Source: an uncultured Bacteroidota bacterium
GTDB lineage: Bacteria > Bacteroidota > Ignavibacteria > Ignavibacteriales > Ignavibacteriaceae
Assembly: GCA_963782475.1 (NCBI GenBank)
Contig: CAWAJW010000015.1
Coordinates: 811,007 to 843,006 of the forward strand
DNA: 32,000 bases
Direction: 5' to 3'
A model generated the notes under the pieces. The model saw only the letters and a program-made list of their open reading frames with translations, was not told the origin of the DNA and made no database searches. Position numbers and translations under genes: made by a program. Of this stretch, positions 1 through 31,845 are shown one piece after another (position 1 is the stretch's first letter; each line of letters begins with the position of its first letter).

Positions 1-38
1 CTGATTTATCTTCATTTTATAAACACTTAACTTTAATT

Positions 39-1661: not shown

Positions 1662-1706
1662 GGGGTGTGGAAATCGGGAAGATGGGAAGTTAGGAAGATG
1701 AGAAGC

Positions 1707-1832
1707 CTGACACTATGAACCTCATAATGCAATACCTCACTTCTGTTGCGTATCAGCAATCAAGATTTCTCAGTCATACCATTGAAAGCAAATTGGATTC
1801 CTTCTACCTTCGGAAGATAAATCGAAATGACA
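1707..1832 (+). repeat. Module B repeat (ctgacactatgaacctcataatgcaatacctcacttctgttgcg ... taagatttctcagtcataccattgaaagcaaattggattccttc ... gataaatcgaaatgaca)
   Basis: Near-identical copies start at 1707, 2542, 3125, 10647, 15699 and 17037. It is preceded at 1677-1706 by a purine-rich tract that is the reverse complement of the CTTCC tracts seen elsewhere. Confidence 0.85.
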
Positions 1833-1853
1833 GGGATAGCACGCAAGACCTTG

Positions 1854-1991
1854 GGGGCTGACCAAAATGCAGCACAGATTAAACGTCTTTGTTTTGGGCT
1901 TTGTAATCTGTGCGTCTGAAATTAAATCTGAATCATTAATTGTTATATCATATCAAATAATTTACAAAGATTATATTTTTTGGTCAGCCTC
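1854..1991. repeat. Module H: MITE-like / structured element with 12-14 bp terminal inverted repeats (ggctgaccaaaa ... ttttggtcagcc)
   Basis: Outer stem ggctgaccaaaa/ttttggtcagcc encloses an inner 9-bp stem gcacagatt/aatctgtgc. Copies at 1854-1991, 2688-2825 and a shorter one at 10315-10414. Confidence 0.8.
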
Positions 1992-2109
1992 ATTTGGAGT
2001 TTAATAAACGGGAAATGAGGTTAGCGGATAGAATATAATAATTATGTTAAGATGTAATTTTAATAGTTTGGTTACAAATTGATAGATAAGAATACAGATG
2101 AGGGAACAA

Positions 2110-2532
2110 GTCCCCCTTAATAAAGGGGGAACGAAGGGGGTTGTTAAATGAAGATATATTACAAAAATAATTTAAAGAATAAATCCAGAGAATTAAGGAA
2201 TAACAGTACTTTATCAGAAATACTGCTATGGAATGAATTGAAAGGACGTAAAATGCTGGGTTATCAATTCATGCGTCAAAAGCCGATAAATAAATATGTA
2301 GTAGATTTTTATTGCAGCAAATTAAAACTGGTAATAGAAATAGATGGAACCAGCCATTATGGAAAAGAGGAAGAAGATAACATCAGGCAAAAGGAATTAG
2401 AAAAATCAGGATTATCATTTTTGAGGTTTGATGATTTGGAAGTAAAGTTTAAAATGGATGAGGTGTTAAATAAAATAAAAAATTGGATGGAAAAGCACCA
2501 ACAACCCCCTCGCCCCCTTTGATAAGGGGGAC
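2110..2532 (+). mobile_element. DUF559 nuclease cassette bounded by about 35-bp imperfect terminal inverted repeats built from C5/G5 hairpins
   Basis: Left end 2110-2146 is gtcccccttaataaagggggaacgaagggggttgtta. The reverse complement of the right end 2499-2532 is gtcccccttatcaaagggggcgagggggttgttg. By hand alignment 31 of 37 positions match. The left TIR abuts the ATG and the right TIR encodes the last codons (QQPPRPL) and the stop. Confidence 0.65.
2148..2522 (+). CDS. DUF559 domain protein (Vsr-like PD-(D/E)xK endonuclease fold), 124 aa
   Basis: Family-typical pattern: LW..L.GRK..G.QF.RQ....Y.VDFYC...KLVIEIDG..H......D..R...L...G...LRF....V. Confidence 0.85.
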   Translation: MKIYYKNNLKNKSRELRNNSTLSEILLWNELKGRKMLGYQFMRQKPINKYVVDFYCSKLKLVIEIDGTSHYGKEEEDNIRQKELEKSGLSFLRFDDLEVKFKMDEVLNKIKNWMEKHQQPPRPL

Positions 2533-2541
2533 TATTGTACG

Positions 2542-2667
2542 CTGACACTATGAACCTCATAATGCAATACCTCACTTCTGTTGCGTTACAACGATTAAGA
2601 TTTCTCAATCATACCATTGAAAGCAAATTGGATTCCTTCTACCTACGGTAGATAAATCGAAATGACA
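2542..2667 (+). repeat. Module B repeat, copy 2 (start of the 835-bp segmental duplicate of 1707-2541)
   Basis: Same sequence as 1707-1832, offset 835 bp. The duplication continues through module H and the left TIR to 3019. Confidence 0.85.
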
Positions 2668-2687
2668 GGGACGCACGTAAGACCTTC

Positions 2688-2825
2688 GGGGCTGACCAAA
2701 ATGTAGCACAGATTAAACGTCTTTGTTTTGGGATTTGAAATCTGTACGTCTGTAATTAAATCTGAATCATTAATCGTTAGATCATATCATATAATTTACA
2801 AAGATTATATTATTTGGTCAGCCTC
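2688..2825. repeat. Module H, copy 2
   Basis: Same terminal inverted repeats and inner stem as 1854-1991, with a few substitutions. Confidence 0.8.
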
Positions 2826-2943
2826 ATTTGGAGTTTAATAAACGGGAAATGAGGTTAGCGGATAGAATATAATAATTATGTTAAGATGTAATTTTAATAG
2901 TTTGGTTACAAATTGATAGATAAGAATACAGATGAGGGAACAA

Positions 2944-3115
2944 GTCCCCCTTAATAAAGGGGGAACGAAGGGGGTTGTTAAATGAAGATATATTACAAAA
3001 ATAATTTAAAGAATAAATCTTAAGAATTAATTGCCGCTTACGAAAACTTGTATCTTTTTACTTGTATCTTGTGTCTTCAACCGACAACCCCCTCGCCCCC
3101 TTTGATAAGGGGGAC
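2944..3115 (+). mobile_element. ORF-less miniature derivative of the DUF559 cassette (both TIRs retained, ORF body replaced by module E)
   Basis: Left TIR 2944-2980 and right TIR 3082-3115 match those of 2110-2532. The first 13 codons (MKIYYKNNLKNKS, 2982-3020) are retained and followed by a stop. The 313-bp ORF-specific segment (2186-2498 in the full copy) is replaced by about 62 bp of module E (3020-3081). Confidence 0.7.
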
Positions 3116-3124
3116 TATTGTACG

Positions 3125-3250
3125 CTGACACTATGAACCTCATAATGCAATACCTCACTTCTGTTGCGTTACAACGATTAAGATTTCTCAGTCATACCAT
3201 TGAAAGCAAATTGGATTCCTTCTAACTTCGGTAGATAAATCGAAATGACA
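3125..3250 (+). repeat. Module B repeat, copy 3
   Basis: Direct sequence identity to 1707-1832 and 2542-2667. Confidence 0.85.
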
Positions 3251-3489
3251 GGTGTGCATGGCAGTCTCAACGAAATAAAAACGGTTAAAACCGTTCACGA
3301 GAGAAATAACATTTTCTTTAATGAGAACAACCCCGTCATGGTATACTTTGTTTAGCTACCGACGTTTAATCTTCATTTTGTTAGGCAGGTTGAGGCATGA
3401 TTCGTTATTGAATGCTGCACCAGGACAGTCTTCGACAGGCTCAGACTGACAGTATGCTGCGGTCATTGCAGCATGGTGTGATTTCGACG
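3251..3489 (+). repeat. Module F (239 bp), copy 1 of 2; multi-hairpin element
   Basis: Near-identical to 17331-17569. Contains stem aacggtt/aaccgtt, stem atgctgca/tgcagcat enclosing a C-type hairpin (gacagtcttcgacaggctcagactgac), and ctcaac/gttgag pairing. Confidence 0.8.
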
Positions 3490-3505
3490 TATGCAAAGAA
3501 AAAAG

Positions 3506-3583
3506 TGCCGCTTACGAAAACTTGTATCTTTTTACTTTTATCTTGTATCTTTCAAAAGTATCTTTTTACTTTTTTCTTGTACG
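3506..3583 (+). repeat. Module E: T-rich periodic repeat (gccgcttacgaaaacttgtatctttttacttttatcttgt...)
   Basis: Copies at 3020-3081, 3506-3583, 8864-8949, 10543-10600, 16937-16990, 17793-17820, and inverted at 15515-15629. Confidence 0.8.
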
Positions 3584-3600
3584 TTATCACGGGCATATAC

Positions 3601-4269
3601 TTGGTATTGCAAAAAGACACTTCAAAATCAGAAATACTAAAAGAAAATGAATCCTTTAATTTAGGCTTTAAAACTTTTCTTGCTGCATTTTTAGCCACCG
3701 TATTAAGTATCAGATATCTGGATGGTGAGATTGCTCTAAGAGTAATGCATTTTATTCAATCTGTCCATCCAATAAATAAAGTTACTGAAAATATACCCGA
3801 TTTACTGCCCCATTTTGTTGTTGTTGCTACAATATCGATGTGGGCTGTTTTTTTTTACAGGCTGCTCAGGAAAAAATTAGATATAAAAACCCGATTCTTA
3901 ATGCTTTCTGCTACTGTTTTACCGTTTGCATATCTCGCAAAAACAGTATTGAAATTTGTATTTGGAAGAACTTCTCCCCGGCACTGGCTTAAACATCACG
4001 ATCAGCTGTCATTTCACTGGTTCACGCATTGGAGCAGCAGCTTTCCTTCCGGACATATGATCGTATTTGCTGCACTTGGTGCTGCTATTTGGATTTACTA
4101 TCCTCAATACCGGGGATGGGTTTTAACTTTTCTTATTCTGCTGGGAGCAGCGCTAATCGGAACAGATTATCATTTCTTAAGTGATGTAATAGCAGGAGCC
4201 TACCTCGGAGTTTTAACAACATATTCTATAAAGTATTTATTTGAGAAGATAAAAATAAATTTCAGATAA
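3601..4269 (+). CDS. PAP2-superfamily phosphatase (membrane protein)
   Basis: PAP2 motifs KFVFGRTSP ... PSGH ... DYHFLSDVIAG, plus several hydrophobic helices. The ATG-defined ORF starts at 3412, but codons 1-63 are translated repeat modules F/E. There is no ATG between 3454 and 3712. I place the start at the in-frame TTG at 3601 (uncertain). Confidence 0.7.
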   Translation: MVLQKDTSKSEILKENESFNLGFKTFLAAFLATVLSIRYLDGEIALRVMHFIQSVHPINKVTENIPDLLPHFVVVATISMWAVFFYRLLRKKLDIKTRFLMLSATVLPFAYLAKTVLKFVFGRTSPRHWLKHHDQLSFHWFTHWSSSFPSGHMIVFAALGAAIWIYYPQYRGWVLTFLILLGAALIGTDYHFLSDVIAGAYLGVLTTYSIKYLFEKIKINFR

Positions 4270-4352
4270 TAATTGCATATTCAAATTATTACCGGCTTAT
4301 AACCAATGCCGATACTGCATGGCAGGAACCGGGCCTGTATTGACCCAAAAAA

Positions 4353-5974
4353 GTAAACCTCACCCCCGACCCCTCTCCTTATAAAGTAGAGGGGTGGTAT
4401 GTACATTGGAGTGATAAGCAAATATTAGAAATAGTAACATTTTATTACTATCATAGCATCACCTTTTTCCAGACAGAACCTGAAATAAAAAGCTTTATCT
4501 GTCTGCCGGAGACAAGTTGAAAATGAGGTATTGCTTCCTTCTCATTTATAAGGAGAAGGAACGGAAGGATGAGGTTAGTATGCTGCAAAAATGAGGTTGC
4601 TCCCTGTGAAAAGTAAACCTCACCCCCGACCCCTCTCCTTATAAAGTAGAGGGGTGGTATGTGCATTGGAGAGATAAACGATTATATCAAAATATATCTT
4701 TTATTTATAATCTTCACATTTTTCTATTTCTAGACAACATATCAAATTAATAGTTTTTCTGAAAATGAAGGTATTGCTTCCTTCTACTTTATAAGGAGAA
4801 GGAACGAAAAGATGAGGTTAGTAAGTTGTTCAAAAGAGGTTGACAGCCAGTCAAATTAGTTCAAAAATTTTTCTCTAAATATAGATTACATGACTATCCA
4901 CTATAACAAACAATCCGAAAAAACAAAAAGAAGAAAATTAAGACGGAAATCAACTGAAGCTGAAAAACTGCTGTGGGAAAAATTAAGAGGAAGAAAACTT
5001 TCAGGACTAAAATTCAGGCGTCAATATAGTATAGCCCAATTTGTATTGGATTTCTATTGTCCGGAAAAAAGATTTGCCATAGAACTAGACGGCGGTATAC
5101 ATGAGAAAAAAGATGTGAAGAATCACGATGAGAACAGAGATGGTTTCATAGAAGGTTTTGGAATAAAAATAATAAGGATTAAAAATGAATTGGTTCTGGA
5201 TGATATTGATAGTGCGCTCGAATATATAAAGGAGCAAATATAAACTGTGTAAACCTCACCCCCGCCCCCTCTCCTTATAAAGTAGAGGGGTTCTACGCAC
5301 ATTGGAGTGAAAAGCAAATATTAAAGATAGTAACATTTTATTGCTAATCATAGCATCACCTTTTTCCAGACTGAACCTGAAATAAAAGCTTCATCTGTCT
5401 GCCGGAGACAAGTTGAAAATGAGGTTATTGCTTCCTTCTACTTTATAAGGAGAAGGAACGAAAGGATGAGGTTAGTATGCTGCAAAAATGAGATTACTCT
5501 ATCTGAAAGTTAATCTCTGAAAGTTACCTCACCCCCGACCCCTCTCCTTATAAAGTAGAGGGGTGCTATGAACATTGGAGTGATAAGCAAATATTGAAAG
5601 TAGTAACATTTTATTGGTAATCATAGCACCACCTTTTTCCAGACAGAACCTGAACAAGTTGAAAATGAGGTTATTGCTTCTTTCTCCTTTATAAGGAGAA
5701 GGAACGGAAGGATGAGGTTAGTATGCTGCAAAATGAGGTTGCTCCATGTGAAAAGTAAACCTCACCTCCGGCCCCTCTCCTTATAAAGTAGAGGGGTGGT
5801 ATGTGCATTGGAGTGATAATCAAATATTGAAAGTAGTAACATTTTATTGCTAATCATAGCATCACCTTTTTCCTGACAGAACCTGAACAAGTTGAAAATG
5901 AGGGTATTGCTTCCTTCTACTTTATAAGGAGAAGGAACGAAAGGATGAGGTTAGTATGCTGCAAAAATGAGGTT
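4353..5974 (+). repeat. Array I of module A units (about 220-260 bp each): 4353-4598, 4613-4841 (divergent), 5249-5495, 5523-5740, 5755-5974, with a DUF559 gene inserted between units 2 and 3
   Basis: Each unit runs gtaaacctcacccccgacccctctccttataaagtagaggggtggtatg ... ctgtctgccggcagac ... ttccttctcatttataaggagaaggaa ... gatgaggttagtatgctgcaaaatgaggtt. Units 4 and 5 lack the ctgtctgccggcagac palindrome. Confidence 0.9.
4890..5243 (+). CDS. DUF559 domain protein (Vsr-like endonuclease fold), 117 aa
   Basis: LW..LRGRKL.GLKFRRQ......VLDFYC...RFAIELDGG.H......D..R......G...IR..N..V. It is a paralog of 2148-2522. The stop codon is followed 5 nt later by the start of an A unit. Confidence 0.85.
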   Translation: MTIHYNKQSEKTKRRKLRRKSTEAEKLLWEKLRGRKLSGLKFRRQYSIAQFVLDFYCPEKRFAIELDGGIHEKKDVKNHDENRDGFIEGFGIKIIRIKNELVLDDIDSALEYIKEQI

Positions 5975-6181
5975 AGTAACCTCCCAGATAAAAAGATAGT
6001 GTTACCAATGAAGAGTATTAGTCCCTTAATAAAATGGGAAGAAGTGGCTGTTAGATAATATATAATGGTAATAAGGCTCACACTGATTCTCCGGCTTCTG
6101 ATTTTTTGGCTTCTGATAAGGGCTGCCAATACGTATTAATATGTGGTACAAATTGTGATACGAAATCACTGAAATATTATC

Positions 6182-7708
6182 ATGAAAATATTCACCCTGA
6201 TATATTTTATTATAATTTTCAATGCTCCCGCATATTCCCAGGTCGTCTATCAACCGTTATGGCATGATGTGTATAATTATCTCGACCGCTTGAGTCAAAA
6301 AGGGGTAATAGAATATGACGATTTAGTCAAACCTCTCCCCAGGAAATATATTTATGAAAAACTGATTGAAGCGGAAAAAAATTCTGAGCAGTTAACTAAA
6401 TTGGAAAAAGAAGAGCTGATTTATTTCAAAAAAGAATATTTTTTTGAAAGTAAGCTGGAAGGGGATACAGCTCAATATAAAAAATCACCAAATTTTTTCG
6501 GTAAAGATGAAGCAGGCAGGTACAGGCTTTTCTCCTATAGTAATAATACTTTCAAAATAAACCTCAGCCCGATAATCGGTTATCAGCTTACGCTCCCAGG
6601 GAAAGAAAGGAACCAGAATACATGGAACGGGATTTATAGTTATGGATATTTATCTGATTTTTTAGGCTACAGCATGGATTTAAGGGTGCATAATGAGCAG
6701 GGTAATTACCTGGATCCCAATAAATATTTTACACCTGAAGAGGGAGTAATCCCTTCCGCCAGAACCGACCTGGCCTCTCACGAAAACTCTATTGACTACA
6801 GCGAGGTTAAGGGGATGGTATCTGCCGGCTGGGATTGGGGCGACATAATTTTTGGTAAAGATTTCATTACCTATGGGTATACAAAAAGCGGAAACCTGGT
6901 TCTCTCGGATAAAGCTCCATCCTTCCCTTATATCCGTATTGATGTAAATCCAATTAGCTGGCTGAAGTTCCATTACTTCCATGCCTGGCTCGCTTCAGAT
7001 GTTATAGATTCAGTGAATTTTGAAGAGGGGTTACGAACGATATACAGGAATAAATATTTCGCATGGCATTCCATTGTAGTTACTCCTGTGAAAGGACTGG
7101 ATCTTTCAATCGGCGAGTCGGTTGTCTATGCAGACCGGATCGAGCCGGTCTACCTGATACCGGTTATGTTCTTTTTCCTGGCGGACGATTTCTTAAGTAA
7201 TAGAATGGAAGGGAATAAAGGAGATGCTAATTCACAGATCTTTCTCTCGGTCAGCTCAAGGGACCATATAAAAAATACTCATTTATATGGAACTTTATTT
7301 ATCGACGAGCTAACTCTCGCAGGGCTGACGGGTTCTCTTTTGTCAAGTAATCACCATACAATGGGTGGTTCAGTATTCGGTTCAAACAGAGTCAGAACAC
7401 AACTCGGATTTACTTTAGGTGCGTCTGTCGCCGATCTGCCTGTAGAGAACCTGACCCTTACAACAGAATACACAAGAATAAATCCGTTTGTTTATCAGCA
7501 TCACGATCCCGCACAAACCTACACCAATTCCGGGTATATAATGGGAGATTGGCTTGGGTCAAATTCAGATCTCATTTATCTCAATATTAATTATAGAATT
7601 CTAAGGGGGCTGCAGGTAAACCTGTGGGGAGAGTATATCCGCAAGGGGAGTGAGAGCGACAGTCTGCAGTATGCAGATAGCACCAGCCTCCTTTTTTATA
7701 CGGATTGA
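6182..7708 (+). CDS. Wzi-like capsule-assembly outer-membrane beta-barrel protein; the C-terminal about 55 codons continue in another frame to 7875
   Basis: Signal peptide, VYQPLWHDVYNYLDRLSQKGVI N-terminal motif, long beta-rich body. After the stop at 7708 a shifted frame reads QHYKYFGLDLKYEPIHELNINAGFRTNLESDEQEDNSYLTTRTNIFSFSIYYGL, with a stop at 7873-7875. This matches the C-terminal strands of the 39-1661 copy. The shift is at a T6 run near 7690-7700. Confidence 0.75.
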   Translation: MKIFTLIYFIIIFNAPAYSQVVYQPLWHDVYNYLDRLSQKGVIEYDDLVKPLPRKYIYEKLIEAEKNSEQLTKLEKEELIYFKKEYFFESKLEGDTAQYKKSPNFFGKDEAGRYRLFSYSNNTFKINLSPIIGYQLTLPGKERNQNTWNGIYSYGYLSDFLGYSMDLRVHNEQGNYLDPNKYFTPEEGVIPSARTDLASHENSIDYSEVKGMVSAGWDWGDIIFGKDFITYGYTKSGNLVLSDKAPSFPYIRIDVNPISWLKFHYFHAWLASDVIDSVNFEEGLRTIYRNKYFAWHSIVVTPVKGLDLSIGESVVYADRIEPVYLIPVMFFFLADDFLSNRMEGNKGDANSQIFLSVSSRDHIKNTHLYGTLFIDELTLAGLTGSLLSSNHHTMGGSVFGSNRVRTQLGFTLGASVADLPVENLTLTTEYTRINPFVYQHHDPAQTYTNSGYIMGDWLGSNSDLIYLNINYRILRGLQVNLWGEYIRKGSESDSLQYADSTSLLFYTD

Positions 7709-7963
7709 ACCAGCATTATAAATATTTTGGACTCGATCTGAAATATGAACCAATCCATGAATTAAACATCAACGCAGGTTTCAGGACAAACCTAGAATCG
7801 GACGAGCAGGAAGATAATTCCTATTTAACTACTAGAACTAATATCTTTTCGTTCTCAATTTATTACGGTTTGTAGTAAAGGTTAAAGCAATTATTTTATC
7901 ATTGCATTACACTATTTGGAATTACCTCTGCCTCCGGCAGGTAAATCAAAATGACAATGTGCT

Positions 7964-8250
7964 GCGACCAAACTTCCCATCTTCCAAACTTCTGCTTTTC
8001 CGACCTCTGACCTCTGCACTATGACAGTCTTCGACAAGCTCAGACTGACAGGCACCTGCGAACAAACTTCCAATCTTCTAAACTTCCTAACTTCTGCTCT
8101 TCCGACCTCCGACCTCTGTGAGAAATCTTACATTCAACGATTAAGATTTCTCAGTCGCCAATAGATATTCCAGAATGTGCTCCTTCTACCTCCGGTAGAT
8201 AAATCGGAATGACAATGAGACAAGGTTTAAAATCAATTTGTCATTTCGAA
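7964..8250 (+). repeat. Module C/B composite: two CTTCC-rich polypyrimidine tracts, each followed by a hairpin, then a gaatgaca/tgtcattc hairpin
   Basis: Tract 7964-8019, then C hairpin 8023-8049 (gacagtcttcgacaagctcagactgac). Tract 8051-8118, then B hairpin gagaaatctta/taagatttctc at 8120-8152. Confidence 0.8.
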
Positions 8251-8260
8251 TTCCGGCTCA

Positions 8261-8832
8261 AAGGAGAAGGAAGGAAAAGATGAGGTTAGTATGCTGCAAA
8301 ATGAGGTTACTCTATCCGGAAAGTCAACCTCACCCCCGACCCCTCTCCTTATAAAGTAGAGGGGTTCTACGAACATTGGAGTGATAAGCAAATATTGAAA
8401 GCAGTAACATTTTATTGCTAATCATATCATCACCTTTTTCCTAGACAGAACCTGAAATAAAAAGCTTTATCTGTCTGCCGGCAGACAGGTTGAAAATGAG
8501 GTTATTGCTTCCTTCCCCTTTATAAGGAGAAGGAACGAAAAGATGAGGTTAGTATACTGCAAAATGAGGTTACTCTATTTGAAAGTCAACCTCACCCCCG
8601 ACCCCTCTCCTTATAAAGTAGAGGGGTGGTATGTGCATTGGAGTGATAAGCAAATATTGAAAGTAGTAACATTTTATTGCTAATCATAGCATCACCTTTT
8701 TCCTAGACAGAACCTGAAATAAAAAGCTTTATCTGTCTGCCGGCAGACAGGTTGAAAATGAGGTATTGCTTCCTTCTCATTTATAAGGAGAAGGAACGGA
8801 AGGATGAGGTTAGTATACTGCAAAATGAGGTC
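8261..8832 (+). repeat. Array II of module A: partial 3' piece 8261-8308, full units 8323-8571 and 8585-8832
   Basis: Same sequence as arrays I and III, period about 262 bp. Confidence 0.9.
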
Positions 8833-8863
8833 AGCGGATAGGATATAACAATCCCGGAAAATG

Positions 8864-8949
8864 AATTGCCGCTTAAGAAAACTTGTATCTTTTTACTTTT
8901 ATCTTGTGTCTTGTAAAGTATCTTTTTACTTTAATCTTGTATCTTCGAC
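8864..8949 (+). repeat. Module E copy abutting the 3' end of the M24 peptidase gene
   Basis: aattgccgcttaagaaaacttgtatctttttacttttatcttgtgtcttgtaaagtatctttttactttaatcttgtatcttcgac. Confidence 0.8.
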
Positions 8950-8979
8950 TGAATCATTCATCAATGCCCAATCCACACC

Positions 8980-10170: not shown

Positions 10171-10314
10171 TTAGAATCTCCCGTATCAATAAGTTTTATT
10201 AATATTGAAATAAAGTTAACAAATGGTTAAACTATAAAAAAATATATTGATTTAAATGAAGAGGAGAAATGACGTGAAACAAGAGGTAGAGGATTTTACG
10301 AAATGCACACTCAA

Positions 10315-10414
10315 GAGGCTGACCAAAATGCAGCACAGATTAAACGTTTTTGTTTTGAGACTTGAAATCTGTGCGTCAAATAATTTATAAAGATTATATT
10401 TTTTGGTCAGCCTC
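10315..10414. repeat. Module H, copy 3 (internally shortened)
   Basis: gaggctgaccaaaatgcagcacagattaaacg...aatctgtgcg...ttttttggtcagcctc. Confidence 0.8.
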
Positions 10415-10542
10415 CAACGGAAAGATGAGGTTGGTAACCGGAAATGATATCAGCGGATAGAATATAAATTGGAAGATGGGAAGTTAGGAAGATTAGAAGT
10501 TAGGAATCCGGAAAATGAGAAAAAAAATTAAAGAATATATCG

Positions 10543-10886
10543 TAAGAATTAATTGCCGCTTACGAAAACTTGTTTCTTTTTACTTGTATCTTGTGTCTTC
10601 AACCAACAACCCCCTCGCCCCCTTTGATAAGGGGGACTATTGTACGCTGACACTATGAACCTCATAATGCAATACCTCACTTCTGTTGCGTTACAACGAT
10701 TAAGATTTCTCAGTCATACCAATGAAAGCAAATTGGATTCCTTCGAAATGACAGGGTGTTGCTCGTTCTGTCATTCGACGACTGAAAGGAGGAGAAATCT
10801 TACGTATCAACGATTAAGATTTCTCAGTCATACCATTGAAAGCAAATTGGATTCCTTCTACTTCCGGTAGATAAATCGAAATGACA
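10543..10886 (+). repeat. Composite E + right-TIR hairpin + B + gaaatgaca hairpin + SD-like box + B hairpin
   Basis: Same module order as 16937-17330 and (partly) 3020-3250. The ORF-track ORF 10640-10870 lies entirely within it. Confidence 0.85.
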
Positions 10887-10971
10887 AGGCGTTGTGTCGT
10901 TTCCAAGAAGCATGACTCAGACAGGACAGAGAATCCAAGCGAAATTTTCGTATACACTATCTTTTTCTTTT

Positions 10972-11196
10972 GTACTTTTTTCTTGATAAAAAAGTACTCC
11001 CGATTTTCATCGGGATAAACTCCAAATCAAGACTGCAAATAAATTACTAAAATTTTATTTCATTCCGCTACAGAAAAAGAACTCGTCCCGCCATCTATGA
11101 AGGCAAGAGGCGGGACTCAAACAGCTTTTTCTGTTTAACCTGCCTAGCCGGCAGGCAGGCGCTTCATTCCATAAAATTTTTTACGTAATTTATTTG
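10972..11196. other. Single-copy (within this window) cluster of nested perfect hairpins; candidate structured ncRNA or MITE
   Basis: Stems gtactttttt/aaaaaagtac (10972-10997) and tcccgat/atcggga (10998-11015). About 22-bp AT-rich arms at 11036-11058 and 11171-11196 enclose acagaaaaag/ctttttctgt (11070-11134), gtcccgcc/ggcgggac (11085-11116) and cctgcc/ggcagg (11139-11155). Confidence 0.5.
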
Positions 11197-11449
11197 AGGT
11201 CGAAAAGTCACAATCGTTGATATTTCGTTAAGAAAAGATTTCCCTGTCGCCAATACATATTCCGGAATGTGCTCCTTCGAAATGACAGGGTGTTGCTCGT
11301 TCTGTCATTTCGAATCCCAACTGATACTGTTAAACTTATAGTTGTTGGGTGAGAACTCTTTCGTAAGATTTCTCGCTCATCAATGGGTCATCCAATTTAA
11401 AGTTCGCTCTACCTCCGGTAGATAAATTGAAATGACAATATGCTATGAT

Positions 11450-11885
11450 CAATCTTCCGCTCTCCTATCTTCTGCTTTTCCAACCTCAACCTCTGCACTA
11501 TGACAGTCTTCGACAAGCTCAGACTGACAGAACGGACACAGACTGACGGTGTGTTGTGGTCATATTGAGCTTGTCGAAATATGACCCGCTATTGAGTGTA
11601 GCAGCGGGACAGTCTTCGATAAACTCAGACTGACAGGTGACTTCACAAATCTTCCAAACTTCCGCTCTTCCTAGACAATCAAGATTTCAAGATTCTTTTA
11701 AATTGAATGAATTGTTGAATGATTGAATGAATGAATGATTGAATGTTCGTTGATCTCTGCCTTCCTATCTTCCTAACATCTGCTTTTCTGTTCTTCCGAC
11801 CTCTGACCTCTCACTATACTACGACAGTCTTCGACAAGCTCAGACTGACAGGGCGCTTCCTAACTTCTGCTCTTCTGACCGAAGG
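11450..11885 (+). repeat. Module D composite, copy 1: polypyrimidine tract, C hairpins, ggtcatat/atatgacc and cccgct/agcggg hairpins, TGAA-rich microsatellite
   Basis: Colinear with 13279-13630 and 13871-14187. The microsatellite at 11701-11747 is shorter than in the other two copies. Confidence 0.8.
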
Positions 11886-12064
11886 TACCGCTAACTTTAT
11901 TTTGTGAAAGTTCCATTGTATGATATGCACAAATTGCTTCAACATTAATGAGGGGATTTGGGGATTCAGAGAATAGACTTCGTCTTACAATCTCAATAGC
12001 TCATTGTCTTAGGCTTTCTTCTTCAACCTAAAAATCTTCAATAACATATTGGATTGGCTCTATT

Positions 12065-12556
12065 TTATCCGACCCAGTTTTCTGCTGTGGAATGGAGTCT
12101 TGTAAAATCTTTCATTGCGCTTTCAGTATAATTCTTAAAGCAAACAACAGGCACGGAGGAAAATTTAAATATATTATTGGCAACATTTCCCATCATTGAG
12201 TTCAATCTGCCGGACCATCCATGCGAATTTATTATGATGAGGTCGATATTATTCTTCTCAGAATAACTTAAAATTTCCTTTAATGGTTCCCCGAACTTTA
12301 TTACTTCCGTAATATTTGCGGCCGGGTGCGGAATCTCATGTATAAATTTATTCAATTCTTCCCGTACATTATTTACTTTAATTTTATGCAGATGATCTTC
12401 ATCCACAAGGGAATCCGAACTATAATTCGGTTTAATAACATGCATTAAGTGAAGCAGTCCCCCGCTTTGATTTGAAAGAGTGCAGCCCAGAGTAAAACTA
12501 TGGATTGAATTCTCGGAAAGGTCGATTGGAACAAGTATATTCTTTAAATTCAACAT
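12065..12556 (-). CDS. Universal stress protein (UspA family)
   Basis: ILVPIDLSE N-terminus, HLMHV, and the C-terminal nucleotide-binding-like stretch DLIIINSHGWSGRLNSMMGNVANNIFKFSSVPVVCFK. Confidence 0.75.
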   Translation of the reverse strand: MLNLKNILVPIDLSENSIHSFTLGCTLSNQSGGLLHLMHVIKPNYSSDSLVDEDHLHKIKVNNVREELNKFIHEIPHPAANITEVIKFGEPLKEILSYSEKNNIDLIIINSHGWSGRLNSMMGNVANNIFKFSSVPVVCFKNYTESAMKDFTRLHSTAENWVG

Positions 12557-12576
12557 AACTTACCTCCTTTCAATTA

Positions 12577-12927
12577 TTAAACGGTTAATAGGTCGAGTGT
12601 ATTCTTTACTTCCAATATATCAAATGGTTTGTAAAAAATGGCTTTTACATATTTTCTGATTTTTTTATCAAACTCTTTAAATTCATTTCTATATACGTAA
12701 AGCAGGATTACAGGAATAGTTGTTATATGCTGAATATTTCTACATACACTTTCTGTTTCTGCTGTCGGTTCAGCATCCATCAGAATTATATCGAAGGAAG
12801 TATTTCTTGAAATCAATTCAAAGTCTTTAATATCTGTTGTTAATGTTATATTATACATGTTTTGTAAATACATTAAGAAGCTGAAGCTCATTACAAAATC
12901 TGAACTATATAGGAGAATTTTTTTCAT
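12577..12927 (-). CDS. Stand-alone CheY-like receiver domain protein (atypical acidic pocket)
   Basis: KKILLYSSD ... DIILMDAEP ... PVILLY ... YKPFD layout of a receiver domain. The N-terminal DD pair is replaced by SD. It lies 20 bp upstream of the Usp gene on the same strand. Confidence 0.55.
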   Translation of the reverse strand: MKKILLYSSDFVMSFSFLMYLQNMYNITLTTDIKDFELISRNTSFDIILMDAEPTAETESVCRNIQHITTIPVILLYVYRNEFKEFDKKIRKYVKAIFYKPFDILEVKNTLDLLTV

Positions 12928-13278
12928 TGGTCATAATATTGATGTGTATATAGGTATCAAAGTTTCAATTACTATTTATATGCCAGGAAATGATGAGTCA
13001 GTAAATTCACTTTTTGGAATAAACACCAATGTTCGTAATTGAAGAAGTGCTTTGTTTTCTCTTTATTGCAAAAAGAATTTTTAAGATGTAAGAAAGAGGG
13101 AGGAAGTGAAGTGGGGGATGACCCGTTTCGTAATAAGTTTCTCATTGACAGTCTTCGACATGCATGTTGGGTAGGGATGGTCCGCTGCATTTACATACAC
13201 ATGACAGTCTTCGACAAGCTCAGACTGACAATGCGCGCCTGCGACCAGACTTTCAAACTTCAATTCTATAAGATGTGC

Positions 13279-14402
13279 ACTATGACAGTCTTCGACAAGC
13301 TCAGACTGACGGAACGGACACAGGCTGACGGTGTTTTGTGGTCATATTGAGCTTGTCGAAATATGACCCGCTATTGAGTTTAGCAGCGGGACAGTCTTCG
13401 ATAAACTCAGACTGACAGGTGACTTCACAAATCTTCCAAACTTCCGCTCTAGACAATCAAGATTTCAAGATTCTTTTAAATTGAATGAATGAATTGTTGA
13501 ATTGTTGAATGATTGAATGATTGAATGAATGAATGTTCGTTGATCTCTACCTTCCCATCTTCCTAACTTCCGCTCTTCTAACCTCTGACCTCTGCACTAT
13601 GACAGTCTTCGACAAGCTCAGACTGACAGGGTGCCCGCGACCAAACTTCCAATCTTCTAAACTTCCTAACTTCTGCTCTTCCGACCTCTGACCTCTGTGA
13701 GAAATCTTACATTCAACGATTAAGATTTCTCAGTCATACCAATGAAAGCAAATTGGATTCCTTCGAAATGACAATGTGTCTTTCCACCTTCAGATAAATC
13801 GAAATGACAATATGCTACGAACAAACTTCCCATCTTCCTAACTTCCGCTCTTCTAACCTCTGACCTCTGCACTATGACAGTCTTCGACAAGCTCAGACTG
13901 ACGGAACGGACACAGGCTGACGGTGTTTTGTGGTCATATTGAGCTTGTCGAAATATGACCCGCTATTGAGTTTAGCAGCGGGACAGTCTTCGATAAACTC
14001 AGACTGACAGGTGACTTCACAAATCTTCCAAACTTCCGCTCTAGACAATCAAGATTTCAAGATTCTTTTGAAATTGAATGAATGAATTGTTGAATTGTTG
14101 AATGATTGAATGATTGAATGAATGAATGTTCGTTGATCTCTACCTTCCCATCTTCCTAACTTCTGCTCTTCCGACCTCTGACCTCTGTGAGAAATCTTAC
14201 ATTCAACGATTAAGATTTCTCAGTCATACCAATGAAAGCAAATTGGATTCCTTCGAAATGACAATGTGTCTTTCCACCTTCAGATAAATCGAAATGACAA
14301 TATGCTACGAACAAACTTCCCATCTTCCTAACTTCCGCTCTTCTAACCTCTGACCTCTGCACTATGACAGTCTTCGACAAGCTCAGACTGACAGGGTGCC
14401 CG
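13279..14402 (+). repeat. Tandem duplication of a D/C/B composite: copy 13279-13870 (592 bp), copy 13871-14360 (490 bp), partial third copy 14361-14402
   Basis: actatgacagtcttcgacaagctcagactgacggaacggacacaggctgacgg recurs at 13279 and 13871, and its first part at 14361. The second copy lacks about 100 bp lying between two cttcctaacttc tracts. Microsatellites at 13478-13536 and 14072-14128. Confidence 0.85.
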
Positions 14403-14416
14403 TTGACTATACTGGA

Positions 14417-15421
14417 TTATTCCTGATAAAGTTTTCCAGTTCTTTTAAATGATACTATTCCTTCGGTACATGTTGGGCTCGTAAGATTAAACCTTGCATT
14501 TGCTGCAGCGATCTGGAGGCATTTATCCAGCGGCAGCTCTTCATGAATACCGTAAAGAATACCTGCACAAAATGAATCGCCGGCACCATTCATTCCTTTT
14601 ATATCCTTTTCATTTATTTGATAGGAAGGAATAAAATATCTCCTCCCCGATCTGTCAGCAGCAAAACCTCCTTCGGGATAATGTATGACAACAATATCAT
14701 TAACTCCATATTCAAATAGTAAATCAGCTGCTTCAGCTAACCTTTCCTTATAAATACTTTTATCTTTATCACGTATGGGGATCCCGGTTGTTTTTGATGC
14801 TTCAATTTCATTTACAATAAAATAATTTGTGAAAGGAAGACAGGGCTTAACTATTCTCTGGTAACGGTCTGATTCTTCGGAGATTAAATCTATTGAAGTT
14901 TTGTATCCTTTCTTTTGCAAGAGGGAGAGAGCTTTTGCCCCGGCAACTTTATATTCTGTATCTTCCAGGCACAGCTCATGCAGGATAAGAATATATGCCA
15001 GGTGGAATATTTTTGCATTAGTATTAATCTTTTCAAATTGCTCTAAACCGAGAGATGCATTTGAGCCTGTGTTATGAAAAAATGTCCGCTGACCCGTCTT
15101 TTTAACAGTATATACATCCGTATATGAAGTAGGGAGCTTAGAAGTTAATACTACGGATGTTGTATCTATCCCTTCATTCTTTAAACAATTCAAAATATAT
15201 TCGGCGCGGGTATCATTGCCGAGAACTGCAGTAGCATAGAGGGGGAGGCCCACCTTTAATCTTGCCAGATTCATTAACACATTAAAAGGACCTCCTCCCG
15301 TACTAAGGAATTCTTCTTCAATATTCACCAGCATCCCTTCTCCGGGAAAATGATCTATTATCTTTATCTGGTCAAGAAGGAAATTACCTCCTGTTTGTAT
15401 TCCATTCCGCATTATAGGCAC
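14417..15421 (-). CDS. PfkB-family carbohydrate kinase (ribokinase-like)
   Basis: GGGPFNV N-terminal motif and the C-terminal GAGDSFCAGILYG anion-hole/ATP motif typical of the PfkB family. 334 aa. Confidence 0.8.
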   Translation of the reverse strand: MPIMRNGIQTGGNFLLDQIKIIDHFPGEGMLVNIEEEFLSTGGGPFNVLMNLARLKVGLPLYATAVLGNDTRAEYILNCLKNEGIDTTSVVLTSKLPTSYTDVYTVKKTGQRTFFHNTGSNASLGLEQFEKINTNAKIFHLAYILILHELCLEDTEYKVAGAKALSLLQKKGYKTSIDLISEESDRYQRIVKPCLPFTNYFIVNEIEASKTTGIPIRDKDKSIYKERLAEAADLLFEYGVNDIVVIHYPEGGFAADRSGRRYFIPSYQINEKDIKGMNGAGDSFCAGILYGIHEELPLDKCLQIAAANARFNLTSPTCTEGIVSFKRTGKLYQE

Positions 15422-15514
15422 GCATAATTAATAATAGATTAAAAATAAATATTTTCATGGTTTAGTGGAAATTGAGAAGGGAGGTATGGAAAGGGATGTG
15501 TGGTGTTGGATCCG

Positions 15515-15629
15515 GTTGAAGATACAAGATAAAAGTAAAAAGATACTTTTACAAGACACAAGATAAAAGTAAAAAGATACTTTTACAAGACACAAGATAA
15601 AAGTAAAAAGATACAAGTTTTCGTAAGCG
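15515..15629 (-). repeat. Module E in inverted orientation, expanded as a 34-bp tandem repeat x3
   Basis: gataaaagtaaaaagatac recurs at 15528, 15562 and 15596. The element ends with the reverse complement of gccgcttacgaaaacttg. It lies about 95 bp upstream of the PfkB start. Confidence 0.85.
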
Positions 15630-15698
15630 GTACTTTTTTCTTTTGCATACGCTCAACCAGCAGAGCCCTGACAGTCTGAGCTTGTCGAAGACCGTACG

Positions 15699-15791
15699 CT
15701 GACACTATGAACCTCGTAATGCAATACCTCACTTCTGTTGCGTTACAACGATTAAGATTTCTCGGTCATACCATTGAAAGCAAATTGGATT
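15699..15791 (+). repeat. Module B repeat (truncated copy), preceded by an inverted C hairpin at about 15668-15694
   Basis: ctgacactatgaacctcgtaatgcaatacctcacttctgttgcgttacaacgattaagatttctcggtcataccattgaaagcaaattggattc. Confidence 0.85.
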
Positions 15792-15797
15792 CTGTAT

Positions 15798-16912
15798 TAC
15801 CCAAGAAAATTGACACAAATAGGAAAGGGTAACAAAAAGAAAGAAATCAATATTATTAAATTTCATTTAAAATGTGTCAACCTTTTTTGGGATAAGTCAA
15901 TCCTGAAAGTAAACCTCACCCCCGACCCCTCTCCTTATAAAGTAGAGGGGTGGTATGTGCATTGGAGTGATAAGCAAATATTGAAAGTAGTAACATTTTA
16001 TTGCTAATCATAGCATCACCTTTTTTCTGACAGAACATGAAATAAAAAGCTTTATCTGTCTGCCGGCAGACAAGTTGAAAATGAGGTATTGCTTCCTTCT
16101 CATTTATAAGGAGAAGGAACAGAAGGATGAGGTTAGTATACTGCAAAATGAGGTTACCCTATCTGAAAGTGTTTTGACCCAAGAAAGTTGACACAAATAG
16201 GAAAGGGTAGCAAAAAGAAAGAAATCAATATTATTAATTTTATTTAAAATGTGTCAACCTTTTTTGGGATAAGTCAATCCTGAAAGTAAACCTCACCCCC
16301 GACCCCTCTCCTTATAAAGTAGAGGGGTGGTATGTGCATTGGAGTGATAAGCAAATATTGAAAGTAGTAACATTTTATTGCTAATCATAGCATCACCTTT
16401 TTTCTGACAGAACCTGAAATAAAAAGCTTTATCTGTCTGCCGGCAGACAAGTTGAAAATGAGGTATTGCTTCCTTCTCATTTATAAGGAGAAGGAACGAA
16501 AAGATGAGGTTAGCATACTGCAAAATGAGGTTACCCTATCTGAAAGTGTTTTGACCCAAGAAAGTTGACACAAATAGGAAAGGGTAGCAAAAAGAAAGAA
16601 ATCAATATTATTAAATTTATTTAAAATGTGTCAACCTTTTTTGGGATAAGTCAATCCTGAAAGTAAACCTCACCCCCGACCCCTCTCCTTATAAAGTAGA
16701 GGGGTGGTATGTGCATTGGAGTGATAAGCAAATATTGAAAGTAGTAACATTTTATTGCTAATCATAGCATCACCTTTTTTCTGACAGAACATGAAATAAA
16801 AAACTTTATCTGTCTGCCGGCAGACAAGTTGAAAATGAGGTATTGCTTCCTTCTCATTTATAAGGAGAAGGAACGAAAAGATGAGGTTAGCATACTGCAA
16901 AATGAGGTCAGC
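15798..16912. repeat. Array III: 377-bp tandem repeat x3, each unit = module G (about 130 bp) + module A (about 247 bp)
   Basis: gtaaacctcaccccc starts at 15909, 16286 and 16663 (exact 377-bp spacing). Copies differ by only a few substitutions and one 1-nt indel. G contains the inverted repeat cccaagaaagttgacaca ... tgtgtcaaccttttttggg. Confidence 0.95.
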
Positions 16913-16936
16913 GGATAAAATATGACAATCCCGGAA

Positions 16937-17330
16937 AATTAATTGCCGCTTACGAAAACTTGTATCTTTTTACTTGTATCTTGTGTCTTCAACAGACAAC
17001 CCCCTCGCCCCCTTTGATAAGGGGGACTATTGTACGCTGACACTATGAACCTCATAATGCAATACCTCACTTCTGTAGCGTATCAGCGATCAAGATTTCT
17101 CAGTCATCTCTATGAAAGCAAATTGGATTCCTTCTACCTGCGGCAGATAAATCGAAATGACAAAGTGTTGCTCGTTTTGTCATTCGACGACTGAAAGGAG
17201 GAGAAATCTTACGAACAACGATCAAGATTTCTCAGTCATACCATTGAAAGCAAATTGGATTCCTTCTACCTTCGGTAGATAAATCGAAATGATAATACGT
17301 TCCTCTACCTTCAGATAAATCGAAATGACA
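16937..17330 (+). repeat. Composite E + right-TIR hairpin + B + gaaatgaca hairpin + SD-like box + B hairpin (second copy of the 10543-10886 architecture)
   Basis: Colinear with 10543-10886. The right-TIR-type hairpin ccccctttgataaggggg lies at about 17005-17027. Confidence 0.85.
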
Positions 17331-17569
17331 GGCGTGCATGGCAGTCTCAACGAAATAAAAACGGTTAAAACCGTTCACGAGAGGAAGAGCATTTCCTTTA
17401 ATGAGAACAACCCCGTCATGGTAAGCTATGTTTAACTACCGACGTTTAATATTCATTTTGTTAGGCAGGTTGAGGCATGATTCGTTATTGAATGCTGCAC
17501 CGGGACAGTCTTCGACAAGCTCAGACTGACAGTACGCTGCGGTCATTGCAGCATGGTGTCATTTCGACG
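17331..17569 (+). repeat. Module F (239 bp), copy 2
   Basis: Near-identical to 3251-3489, including the internal hairpins. Confidence 0.8.
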
Positions 17570-17860
17570 ACTGAAAGGAGGAGAAATCTTACGTAAGATT
17601 TCTCGCTCACCTATGAGTCATCCAATTTGGAGTTCGCTTCGAAATGACAATTACGATTACCGGCTTCATTGCTGCATTGGATTGATATGAGCTGAAACGT
17701 ATCCCGTAGTTCAGTTCTCCAGAACTGACTTTCTAAAGTGAGACGAAAAAGAGGTTAAAGACAAAAGAAAAAAGTGTAGTTCACCGAAACCTGCGGCTTA
17801 CGAAAACTTGTGTCTTCAACCGGGAGATAGCAGGAGTATGATAAGTTACTGTTAAGTGAG

Positions 17861-19288: not shown

Positions 19289-19667
19289 GCTGATTATAAT
19301 TTAACTTGAAGTTAAAACAATTCTTTTCTATTAACAATTAATCCCTGGAATATTGACATTTTAACAAAATTTTCCATAAGACTGGGAGAGAAGAGGTTTA
19401 TTTTTATAAAATAAAAAATAGCAATTATATACAAGTAAAGGGTAAAAATAGTATATAATTACCGGAAAAAAAAGGATATGTCCTTGGAGAAATCTACTTA
19501 TAATTAAAATAGTAAAAGTATTTCTGATAAAGTACTTTAACTTTGATTGTGATTATTCCAGCAGAATGACATTCCTGTGCTCCACTTTGATCAGGATCAA
19601 ACAAGTTCAGGCAAACCGGTTGTCAATTTATATCATAATTTTAGACAACCCCAGGGTTTTGATGAAA

Positions 19668-20993: not shown

Positions 20994-21220
20994 AGATCTT
21001 TTCCCTTTTTTAATAGCTTGTGGCTATGTTAAAGTTTTGTATTTTTATAATTGATGCGCAAAGTACATACCATCAATAAAGTTTTCTTAATAGATGAAAT
21101 AGTAAACATTTAATTAATTATTTTTGCACCGGCTGGAAATTATTCTCTTCTATTCCCACAGTTGAGAAATAAATATCTTTTTATAATGGCTTGAAATCGC
21201 TATTTTACTCCATTGTTAAT

Positions 21221-21274: not shown

Positions 21275-21315
21275 ATATATGTGCCGGTTATTATTTATTA
21301 AGAAGGTGGTTTGCT

Positions 21316-22689: not shown

Positions 22690-22751
22690 GGTTGAAGAGG
22701 CGCTGATTTCGGAAGAACTAACCGCTGAGGAAGAGTTATTTATACGATTCC

Positions 22752-31843: not shown

Positions 31844-31845
31844 TT

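Follow-up and report, generated by a model that had tools for sequence, protein, structure and literature searches.

Repetitive extragenic palindromic (REP) sequences carry a GTAG or CGTC tetranucleotide at their 5' head (PMC3733652) and cluster in bacterial interspersed mosaic elements (BIMEs), within which they are regularly spaced and alternate in orientation; their stems are kept by compensatory change, and the gene for the REP-associated tyrosine transposase (RAYT) is always flanked by two inverted REPs (PMC2817692). Here we describe a repeat-rich segment, positions 1665-17860 of a 32,000-nucleotide stretch of DNA (the window; GenBank assembly GCA_963782475.1, contig CAWAJW010000015.1, positions 811,007 to 843,006 of the forward strand) from an uncultured bacterium of the Ignavibacteriaceae, in which hairpins bracket two genes of the DUF559 family. 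Other repeats are modular or strand-specific in their own ways. BOX elements of Streptococcus pneumoniae consist of boxA, a variable number of boxB units and boxC in fixed order and are scattered singly, and palindrome-associated elements derived from the IS200/IS605 insertion sequences (IS) are strand-specific and hairpin-bearing, lack inverted ends and target duplication, and may form head-to-tail arrays.

The Vsr/DUF559 cluster of PD-(D/E)XK nucleases (PMC3424549) includes homing enzymes of the Vsr-like/EDxHD type such as I-Bth0305I, which are found in introns or inteins of phage genes and have their targets in coding sequence (PMC3239194, PMC2677866). We regard it as probable on balance that the segment described here is a recently expanded REP/BIME-like or MITE-like mosaic (MITE, a miniature transposable element with inverted repeats) that derives in part from DUF559 cassettes and has grown by orientation-preserving copying and tandem duplication. 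Its vocabulary of modules is common to related Ignavibacteria.

Results

Repeat content and orientation

Genes were called from open reading frames (ORFs) and Pfam matches, and repeat modules were mapped by nhmmer searches seeded with reference copies. With coding sequences (CDS) and pseudogenes both counted, about 7.8 kb of the first 17.86 kb is coding (about 44%), against about 86% in 17861-32000; the usual coding share of bacterial genomes is about 85-90%. A first-pass annotation, made from the letters of the window alone, had put the two shares at about 43% and about 87%, and had held that nearly all the non-coding DNA is built from repeats. Both statements are borne out: in 1665-17860, 62% of the sequence (10.05 kb) is non-coding, and 8.19 kb of this (81%) is repeated by self-BLAST. 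Repeats within the window account for 46.3% of 1-17860 as against 1.5% of 17861-32000. The G+C content of the window is about 37%, and no tRNA or tmRNA genes were found in it.

The module counts of the first pass were also about right. By nhmmer there are ten full copies and one fragment of module A, five full and seven partial copies of B, 14 copies of C, eight of the CT-rich tract (CT), three of D, six of E, two of F, three of G, two plus one of K, and three each of M and Hp. Patterns for C and for the head of A are expected to match zero times in shuffled sequence, and C was observed 14 times. There are 139 perfect stems of 7 bp or longer, compared with 41 (maximum 54) in shuffles, and 110 of the 139 lie outside CDS.

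Modules had been described as reused in different orientations, which does not hold, since nearly all copies lie on the plus strand (plus to minus: A 10:0, B 12:0, C 13:1, CT 8:0, E 5:1). Direct matches likewise greatly exceed inverted ones in the self-BLAST comparison. The pentamer TGACA, which with or without a following G recurs at the ends of modules, occurs 52 times on the plus strand and 13 times on the minus strand, with 17 expected. GC skew indicates no replication direction here.

The further claim that every module is dominated by perfect stems is true in part. Folding is much stronger than in shuffled sequence for the junction between A units, D, K and Hp/Bhp (z = -3.9 to -5.1) and weakly so for G (z = -2.3; -2.25, one long stem), whereas B proper (z = +0.45), CT together with C (z = -0.23) and E (z = +1.3) fold no better than shuffled sequence. 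Modules B, CT, E and M are unstructured rather than hairpin-dominated. Overlooked in the first pass were the co-orientation of the copies, the link of A and E to the two DUF559 genes, and the vocabulary held in common with related Ignavibacteria.

DUF559 cassettes and their gene-less derivatives

The match to PF04480 is full-length for both DUF559 ORFs (gene 1, E = 4.6e-32; gene 2, E = 1e-30). The two proteins are 38% identical to each other, and there is a match to PDB 3HRL, an 'endonuclease-like protein' (E = 5e-14). Values of dN/dS against relatives are 0.075 for gene 1 and 0.08-0.10 for both genes, like those of neighbouring housekeeping genes.

Each gene is enclosed by inverted hairpins, of which the 5' arm is pyrimidine-rich and the 3' arm purine-rich, joined to a short tag. 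In cassette 1 the tag is GGGGGTTGTT/AACAACCCCC; the arms at 2109-2129 and 2513-2533 are 90% complementary (inverted pair I20), the upstream flank aligns over 37 nt with the reverse complement of the downstream flank, and AGTCCCCCTTAATAAAGGGGGAACGAAGGGGGTTGTT stands upstream of gene 1 with its reverse complement downstream. In cassette 2 the tag is TGAGGTT/AACCTCA, and the inverted repeats that span the ORF are the tail hairpin of one A unit (4780-4802) and the head hairpin of the next (5267-5289; pair I18). A metagenome contig (L004) has the same tail-ORF-head layout, with 77% identity over 719 nt.

The same inverted pairing of one unit's tail with the following unit's head is repeated wherever A units abut (I2, I9, I10), and this junction folds as three hairpins (z = -5.07). 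Between the tags ATGAGGTT and AACCTCA lies a loop of 13-17 nt, the 110-nt module G or the 354-nt ORF, and because these alternate at the same tail/head junction, module A represents cassette 2 minus its gene. Junctions of A tail, 13 nt and A head without the ORF coexist with a single ORF-bearing junction, and on the 1.46-Mb source contig one copy of the ORF was seen. The divergent unit A' that adjoins the ORF resembles the orthologous cassette flanks in loci L004 and L006, and the ORF-bearing locus looks like an old master copy of which the other A units are younger relatives.

Cassette 1 has left comparable derivatives. Three copies in which module E occupies the interior of the ORF (Table 1) are each followed by module B; they form repeat family D3, with 87-96% identity, and inverted pair I21 spans the deleted derivative. 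Each of these E-containing remnants represents a cassette 1 from which the ORF has been deleted.

Two observations were made on module G. All three copies carry a promoter-like TTGACA-16/17-AATAAT with 11 of 12 matches (15852-15880, 16230-16257 and 16607-16634, minus strand). The octamer CTGAAAGT adjoins two of the three G copies, a count confounded by the 377-bp tandem duplication in which they lie; at the A-to-A junction at 5487-5530 this G-flanking 8-mer is doubled around 6 nt (CTGAAAGT TAATCT CTGAAAGT), which could be the footprint of a lost G or a small duplication.

Pairing of hairpins with DUF559 genes at other loci

The layout of hairpin, short spacer, TGAGGT-type tag, ORF, ACCTCA-type tag and hairpin is found in L004, L006 (with two ORFs), L007, L008 and L011, and the same two-sided arrangement is present at a distant homologue, in L014, that is 54% identical. 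In L020 the hairpins lie only upstream of the DUF559 ORF, and in L019 one hairpin is inside the called ORF and four more lie within 430 bp on either side. The DUF559 gene of L013 belongs to a type I restriction operon, where a 50-nt mini-palindrome made up of GACCACCCCC, a hairpin and GGGGGAGGTC overlaps the 3' end of the ORF and a second copy is inside the hsdM coding sequence (3380-3430 and 4760-4810). In loci that were not chosen for their hairpins, these hairpins concentrate at the DUF559 ORF: those within 500 bp of it number four of four in L008 (in 20.7 kb), three of four in L011, one of one in L020 and five of seven in L019. Loci with the pairing come from several lineages related to Ignavibacteria, from one contig that bears the label Bacteroidetes and from metagenome contigs that are unplaced.

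Some of the ORFs themselves run into the palindromes. Of 121 homologues, 23 read through the downstream tag and so acquire a tail of the (Q)TSPP or TSPKSSP type, which is translated ACCTCACCCC (QTSPPTPLLIK is an example), and four of the homologues start inside an upstream hairpin. Stem changes are fully compensated in at least 24 variants. Between genomes with saturated dS the inverted-repeat hairpins keep 92-100% identity, the tail of A is 88-92% identical in L002, and ATGAGGT follows the strand of the DUF559 ORF in every locus (plus/minus: window 33/5, L006 11/0, L008 2/12, L011 0/7). The pairing of hairpin and nuclease gene is conserved and under constraint.

In four loci, namely the window (577-7872), L006, L008 and L019, the DUF559 genes adjoin Wzi-like or polysaccharide-synthesis genes.

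Expansion relative to related genomes

Syntenic contigs (L008, L011 and L023) were recovered through PfkB homologues. The gene order DUF362-GlgP-HemN-acetyl-CoA hydrolase-kinase-PfkB-response-regulator-like (RR-like)-Usp-M24 is the same in L008 and L011, in which orthologous genes are 75-84% identical to those of the window at the nucleotide level; L023 is shorter and covers kinase-PfkB-RR-like-Usp. The spacer between M24 and Usp is 1894 bp in the window, 347 bp in L008 and about 1040 bp in L011, and lies outside L023. That between the RR-like gene and PfkB measures 1489 bp in the window, 328-364 bp in L008, 456 bp in L011 and 426 bp in L023, and that between PfkB and the kinase 2439, 496, 614 and 1387 bp, respectively.

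None of the three L008 spacers has BLAST similarity to any module of the window, and L008 holds the same families elsewhere, including a 2.3-kb gene-free repeat block of its own. L011 fills two of the three spacers with other families, mainly tandem hairpin units of 35-37 bp. The PfkB-kinase spacer of L023 uses the same vocabulary in another order, with pieces like M, the inverted repeat, the body of A, anti-C plus C, K, the tail of A, E and the tail of B, and there one hairpin is nested in the loop of another.

Copies of A are 87-98% identical to each other, with A' at 73-77% to other A units, and the tandem units (377 and 490 bp) share 97-99% identity, although dS between the window and L008 or L011 is saturated, at 1.2-2.2. 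The blocks are therefore recent, lineage-specific expansions that grew long after the lineages split, and the active amplification proposed in the first-pass annotation is supported by the module-free L008 spacers, by the identity of the A copies set against dS above 1 and by the tandem units. Some units are older. A single E-like unit stands upstream of PfkB at the orthologous place in L008, and GAATGA-rich stretches like M occupy the orthologous spacer in L008, L011 and L023, and E and M, which have single copies at those spacers in relatives, are probably ancestral seeds there. The spacers are recurrent sites of accumulation across the group, and what we see looks like a patchy lineage-wide trait, not one unique to this spot.

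The nearest named PfkB homologue is that of an Ignavibacteriaceae metagenome-assembled genome (MAG), at 78% amino acid identity. The closest PfkB orthologues lie mostly on contigs of 1.2-1.7 kb, one of which ends in a hairpin of the cassette 1 type, and we take these short contigs to be assemblies that break at repeats. Among species-representative genomes, a scan found the exact C hairpin in only three, of which two are Ignavibacteria-type MAGs and the third is an Imperialibacter MAG, and in a metagenome scan the tail of A was present in two contigs.

In the Imperialibacter MAG (L001, Bacteroidota), which we count as a different phylum from the relatives of the window, the exact 27-nt C hairpin and a variant of it flank an AAA ATPase gene (5251-5277 and 6660-6686). 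Another hairpin, CTCAAACTAAAGTTTGAGGCTACCAC, forms tandem arrays with a period of 35-37 bp just upstream of PfkB and M24 (L011 9782-9927 and 12993-13237; L008 9912-9948); this unit was not noticed on reading the blocks of the window, and no explicit search for it was made.

Organization of the modules

Several modules are palindromic shells with variable content. The shell TCGAAATGACAG / CTGTCATTTCGA holds either 13 nt, as in Hp (of which the copy at 11276-11314 has a perfect 13-bp stem), or about 240 nt, as in F, which is bounded by the inverted repeat TCGAAATGACAGG / TGTGATTTCGA. The shell of K, GGCTGACCAAAA / TTTTGGTCAGCC, occurs in a long and a short version, and GAGAAATCTTA / TAAGATTTCTC is one more palindromic shell.

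The C hairpins form a family in which the loop GAGCYTGTCGA is kept and the stems differ (CAGTCT/AGACTG, GGTCATATT/AATATGACC and, in L003, CACACT/AGTGTG), with TGACA as a direct repeat on both sides of the stem. The CT-rich tract is 50-60 nt long, and six of its eight copies, all on the plus strand, directly precede a C hairpin. Module D has the order C hairpin, inverted C-loop hairpin with another stem, small hairpin and C' hairpin, and folds so that the C core pairs with the anti-C core over 13-14 bp. Module E is T-rich with a period of about 34 bp.

Composite pieces recur in different blocks (families D3, D7 and D14), and some A units resemble a unit of another block more than an adjacent one; in the identity matrix the unit that starts at 8582 is closer to the unit at 16661 (96.2%) than to the one beside it. 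Module A shows a 28-nt indel that is bounded by AGACA repeats, and extra B-tail units are bounded by GATAAATCGAAATGACA repeats. The blocks end about 50-170 bp short of gene starts.

Table 1. Genes, cassettes, repeat modules and repeat blocks of the window, with positions and strand.
Feature	Position	Strand	Remarks
Wzi-like outer-membrane gene 1	39-1661		frameshift-broken; reading frames 3/1/3
DUF559 gene 1	2148-2522	+	124 aa
PAP2 gene	about 3580-4269		
DUF559 gene 2	4890-5243	+	117 aa
Wzi-like gene 2	6182-7872		one frameshift near 7690, T6 run
M24 peptidase gene	8980-10170	-	
Usp gene	12065-12556	-	
RR-like gene	12577-12927	-	
PfkB kinase gene	14417-15421	-	
Histidine kinase gene	17861-19288	-	
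DUF559 cassette 1	2108-2536	+	left inverted repeat with hairpin 2108-2147; ORF 2148-2522; right inverted repeat 2500-2536
Cassette 1, gene-deleted derivative	2942-3120	+	both inverted repeats and first 38 nt of ORF kept; interior is module E
Cassette 1 remnants	10505-10641, 16912-17031	+	ORF interior replaced by E
A array and cassette 2	4351-5985	+	A 4351-4609; divergent A' 4611-4850; ORF 4890-5243; A 5249-5518, 5519-5751, 5752-5985
A tail fragment and two A units	8223-8845	+	tail fragment, then A 8321-8581 and A 8582-8845, followed by module E 8871-8945
G+A tandem array	15800-16925	+	three units, 377-bp period; family D6, 97-98% identical
Module G	15800-15909, 16178-16285, 16555-16662	+	inverted ends of about 19 bp
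Module B, reference copy	1707-1838	+	
Module B, full copies	2542-2671, 3125-3253, 10647-10756, 17037-17162	+	nhmmer
Module B, truncated copy	15699-15801	+	nhmmer
Module B, partial or variant	8134-8217, 10799-10889, 11365-11437, 13713-13809, 14203-14299, 17215-17293	+	nhmmer
C hairpin GACAGTCTTCGACAAGCTCAGACTGAC	8023-8049	+	1 of 14 copies, pattern search
C hairpin, plus-strand starts	3424, 11502, 11608, 11823, 13203, 13284, 13390, 13601, 13876, 13982, 14366, 17504	+	
C hairpin, sole minus-strand copy	15670-15696	-	
Module D	13284-13420, 11502-11638, 13876-14012	+	nhmmer; z = -4.85
Module E, inverted copy	15513-15640	-	three units, upstream of PfkB; nhmmer
Module E, plus-strand copies	3036-3080, 3510-3580, 8871-8945, 10558-10602, 16948-16992	+	
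Module F	3255-3500, 17331-17579	+	family D14, 93% identical; contains C hairpin
Hp	10743-10775, 11277-11314, 17152-17185	+	minimal form of F shell, 13-nt loop
Module K	1839-2107	+	long palindrome GGCTGACCAAAA...TTTTTGGTCAGCC with inner hairpin; z = -4.76
Module K, copy 2	2673-2941; short version 10311-10468	+	family D13, 96% identical
Module M	13456-13539, 11678-11749, 14048-14132	+	GAATGA-rich, minisatellite-like; nhmmer
Repeat block M24-Usp	10311-11880	+	
Repeat block RR-like gene-PfkB	13140-14402	+	includes 490-bp tandem duplication, 99% identity, family D15
Repeat block PfkB-histidine kinase	15513-17640	+	

Neighbouring genes and other features

The frameshifts in the Wzi-like genes mark either pseudogenes or indel errors of long-read assembly. 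The longest ORF of the PAP2 gene begins within modules F and E (3412-3580), and since its first ~55 codons are repeat-derived the true start probably lies close to 3580. The sole repeat in the gene-dense half is a 108-bp tandem duplication at 22741-22954, in the gap between HemN and GlgP, which belongs to another hairpin family (CCACAGAG...CTCTGCGG). Further along, the ORF at 30185-31843 covers DNA polymerase III alpha only in its finger, HHH and OB domains and lacks PHP and palm, and directly upstream of it on the opposite strand the ORF at 29889-30158 has no Pfam match.

Rfam 15 yielded no match at the gathering score and three chance-level matches in E-value mode, and neither intrinsic terminators nor sigma-70 promoters are enriched over shuffles. 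Integron attC sites were rejected, as the region has no complementary pairs of the core RYYYAAC...GTTRRRY, and the stems read GAGGTT...AACCTC, in the opposite order. Inspection by eye does not support CRISPR repeats, the units being 100-380 bp long and irregular, without short unique spacers. Viral contigs contain no match to the pattern of C or to that of the A head, and a phage origin was set aside.

Discussion

From these patterns we infer a copying mechanism and a role for the nuclease. Composite pieces would be copied, with their orientation kept, into or beside existing copies in other spacers, and units would be duplicated locally in tandem. The trigger is likely to be nicks or breaks at hairpins that are repaired through homology or microhomology, by gene conversion or template switching, and unequal exchange is another candidate route of orientation-preserving copying. 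It is the co-orientation, the head-to-tail arrays, the composite pieces found across blocks and the indels between short direct repeats that argue for copying of this kind, and the result does not look like classical cut-and-paste transposition. On the analogy of REPs and RAYTs (PMC2817692), the DUF559 nucleases would be the best candidate trigger.

Several observations weigh against such a role. The window, L008 and L011 carry cassette 1 at roughly syntenic places, and the DUF559 homologue P0067 sits at one fixed locus in five samples; no hopping of the ORF was seen in either set, and on these grounds the ORF-bearing cassettes look resident. In L008, B and C are inverted relative to DUF559, so that these families are not tied to the nuclease gene, and B, C/CT, D, F and K, which make up about half of the repeat DNA, are linked to DUF559 by adjacency only. 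We found no direct sign of a DUF559 protein acting on the hairpins and no clean target-site duplications around the modules. Moreover, VsrA of Caulobacter, the sole functionally studied DUF559 protein that we found, has been interpreted as a T/G mismatch repair nuclease (PMC12907096).

We raise tentatively, as a possibility that may well prove wrong, that this DUF559 clade and its flanking hairpins (pyrimidine-rich 5' arm, TGAGGT/ACCTCA tag) constitute a second, independent REPtron-like system, in which a vertically inherited nuclease maintains and spreads its cognate palindromes. Were this so, a very large family of unknown function would acquire one, and it might explain the hairpin-encoded 'junk peptide' tails that are found on hypothetical proteins. 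If the nuclease does act on hairpins, it would be a new class of enzyme in the role of RAYT, and a widespread domain would gain a testable function. Literature searches on DUF559, PF04480 and Vsr-like proteins found no paper linking DUF559 to repeat families.

Among the alternatives, segmental amplification without a dedicated enzyme survives best, although we consider it unlikely. The blocks would then result from hairpin-stalled replication, template switching, slippage and unequal recombination at short motifs, with direct duplication seeded by ancestral repeats, and DUF559 would be a bystander repair gene. The nearly complete co-orientation agrees with this, as do the 377- and 490-bp tandem units with their 97-99% identity, the indels between AGACA or GATAAATCGAAATGACA direct repeats, the composite pieces in several blocks (D3, D7, D14), the E and M units already at orthologous spacers of relatives, and the lack of clean target-site duplications. 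What it leaves unexplained is that hairpins and tags are conserved despite saturated dS, that hairpins cluster at DUF559 ORFs of distant lineages, and that module families occur at unrelated loci and in other phyla.

Rather improbable, in our estimate, is that B, C/CT and D, and perhaps all modules, are non-autonomous single-strand elements moved by an HUH/Y1 enzyme of the RAYT or IS200/IS605 TnpA type encoded elsewhere, their co-orientation reflecting the direction of replication. Such elements would account for the strand bias (TGACA 52 against 13, C 13:1, B 12:0), for the module ends in TGACA(G) and the TGACA direct repeat around the C stem, for a C loop (GAGCYTGTCGA) that is kept while the stems vary, and for head-to-tail arrays without inverted ends. 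However, gene calling revealed no Y1 transposase in the window or at any other locus retrieved, B and C are inverted with respect to neighbouring genes in L008, and the GC skew yields no replication direction.

Selection of the modules as cis-acting elements that regulate the flanking genes, whether as arrays for protein binding, as insulators, as stabilisers of RNA or as genes for small RNAs, seems very improbable. In its favour, E adjoins gene ends and has one ancestral unit upstream of PfkB, hairpins are conserved, and the blocks stop about 50-170 bp before gene starts. Against this, a relative has the same genes with module-free spacers, and copy number and order vary freely among relatives; promoter- and terminator-like sites are not enriched over shuffles and Rfam gives no match, which leaves the structural or regulatory role suggested in the first pass unsupported. 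An artefact of long-read metagenome assembly, by chimerism or over-expansion of repeats, is suggested by the frameshifts in both Wzi-like genes, as possible long-read indel errors, and is most unlikely, as the copies have diverged (73-98%) and are not identical, independent assemblies of relatives show like blocks, short-read contigs break at the same gene borders, and the source contig is 1.46 Mb long.

Returning to a mosaic expanded in part from DUF559 cassettes, a 16-kb segment in which non-coding DNA makes up 62% and the spacers exceed those of a relative with the same genes five- to sixfold in length offers an unusually clear snapshot of repeat proliferation. It comes from a little-studied phylum, and such blocks show why lineages of this kind assemble badly from short reads.

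Comparison with known systems

The closest parallel is with REPs, BIMEs and RAYTs (PMC2817692, PMC3116915). Both have short extragenic palindromes with compensated stems in mosaic blocks (20-40 bp long in REPs, and hairpins of 20-27 nt with a pyrimidine 5' arm here). In both, an enzyme gene that is inherited vertically, and of which the DNA read here has a single copy, is bracketed by two inverted copies of its own type of palindrome, and many gene-less copies lie elsewhere. Unlike in those systems, the bracketed gene here encodes a PD-(D/E)XK nuclease of the DUF559/Vsr-like type and not an HUH Y1 transposase; there is no GTAG or CGTC head, the flanks being TGAGGTT/AACCTCA, GGGGGTTGTT/AACAACCCCC and TGACA; copies are co-oriented rather than alternating; the units are longer (A is about 245 bp); and the phylum is Ignavibacteriota.

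The resemblance to MITEs is that the intergenic, gene-less derivatives (A and the E remnants) keep the inverted ends of a gene-bearing parent. Terminal inverted repeats are present in the tail and head of A, the cassette 1 repeats and the ends of G (19 bp), and none in B, CT or E. The parents, however, carry a nuclease and not a DDE transposase, and there are no clear target-site duplications, a strong strand bias and head-to-tail arrays. The only IS seen, a DDE_Tnp_1 element in L006, has no ends in common with the modules.

Like BOX elements, the modules are hairpin-forming, intergenic and variable in number, but more than ten module types are combined here in kilobase-sized blocks. The strand bias and the TGACA tags of B and C are reminiscent of IS200/IS605-derived elements, although neither TnpA nor TnpB turned up among the genes of the DNA examined. 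Hairpins nested in one another (L023) or placed inside a coding gene (L013) recall the very small nested repeats of cyanobacteria and the Rickettsia palindromic elements, which differ in sequence and host and for which we know of no described nuclease partner. With the Vsr-like homing endonucleases the DUF559 proteins have the superfamily cluster and an intact domain in common, and ORF-bearing and ORF-less versions of a site coexist here; the genes of the window differ in being free-standing, chromosomal, under purifying selection and bracketed by hairpins.

The block itself is a REP/BIME-like or MITE-like phenomenon and not categorically new. It is set apart from the known families by the co-orientation of its copies, by its density, by its 'shell and cargo' build and by a PD-(D/E)XK nuclease in the position that RAYT holds elsewhere.

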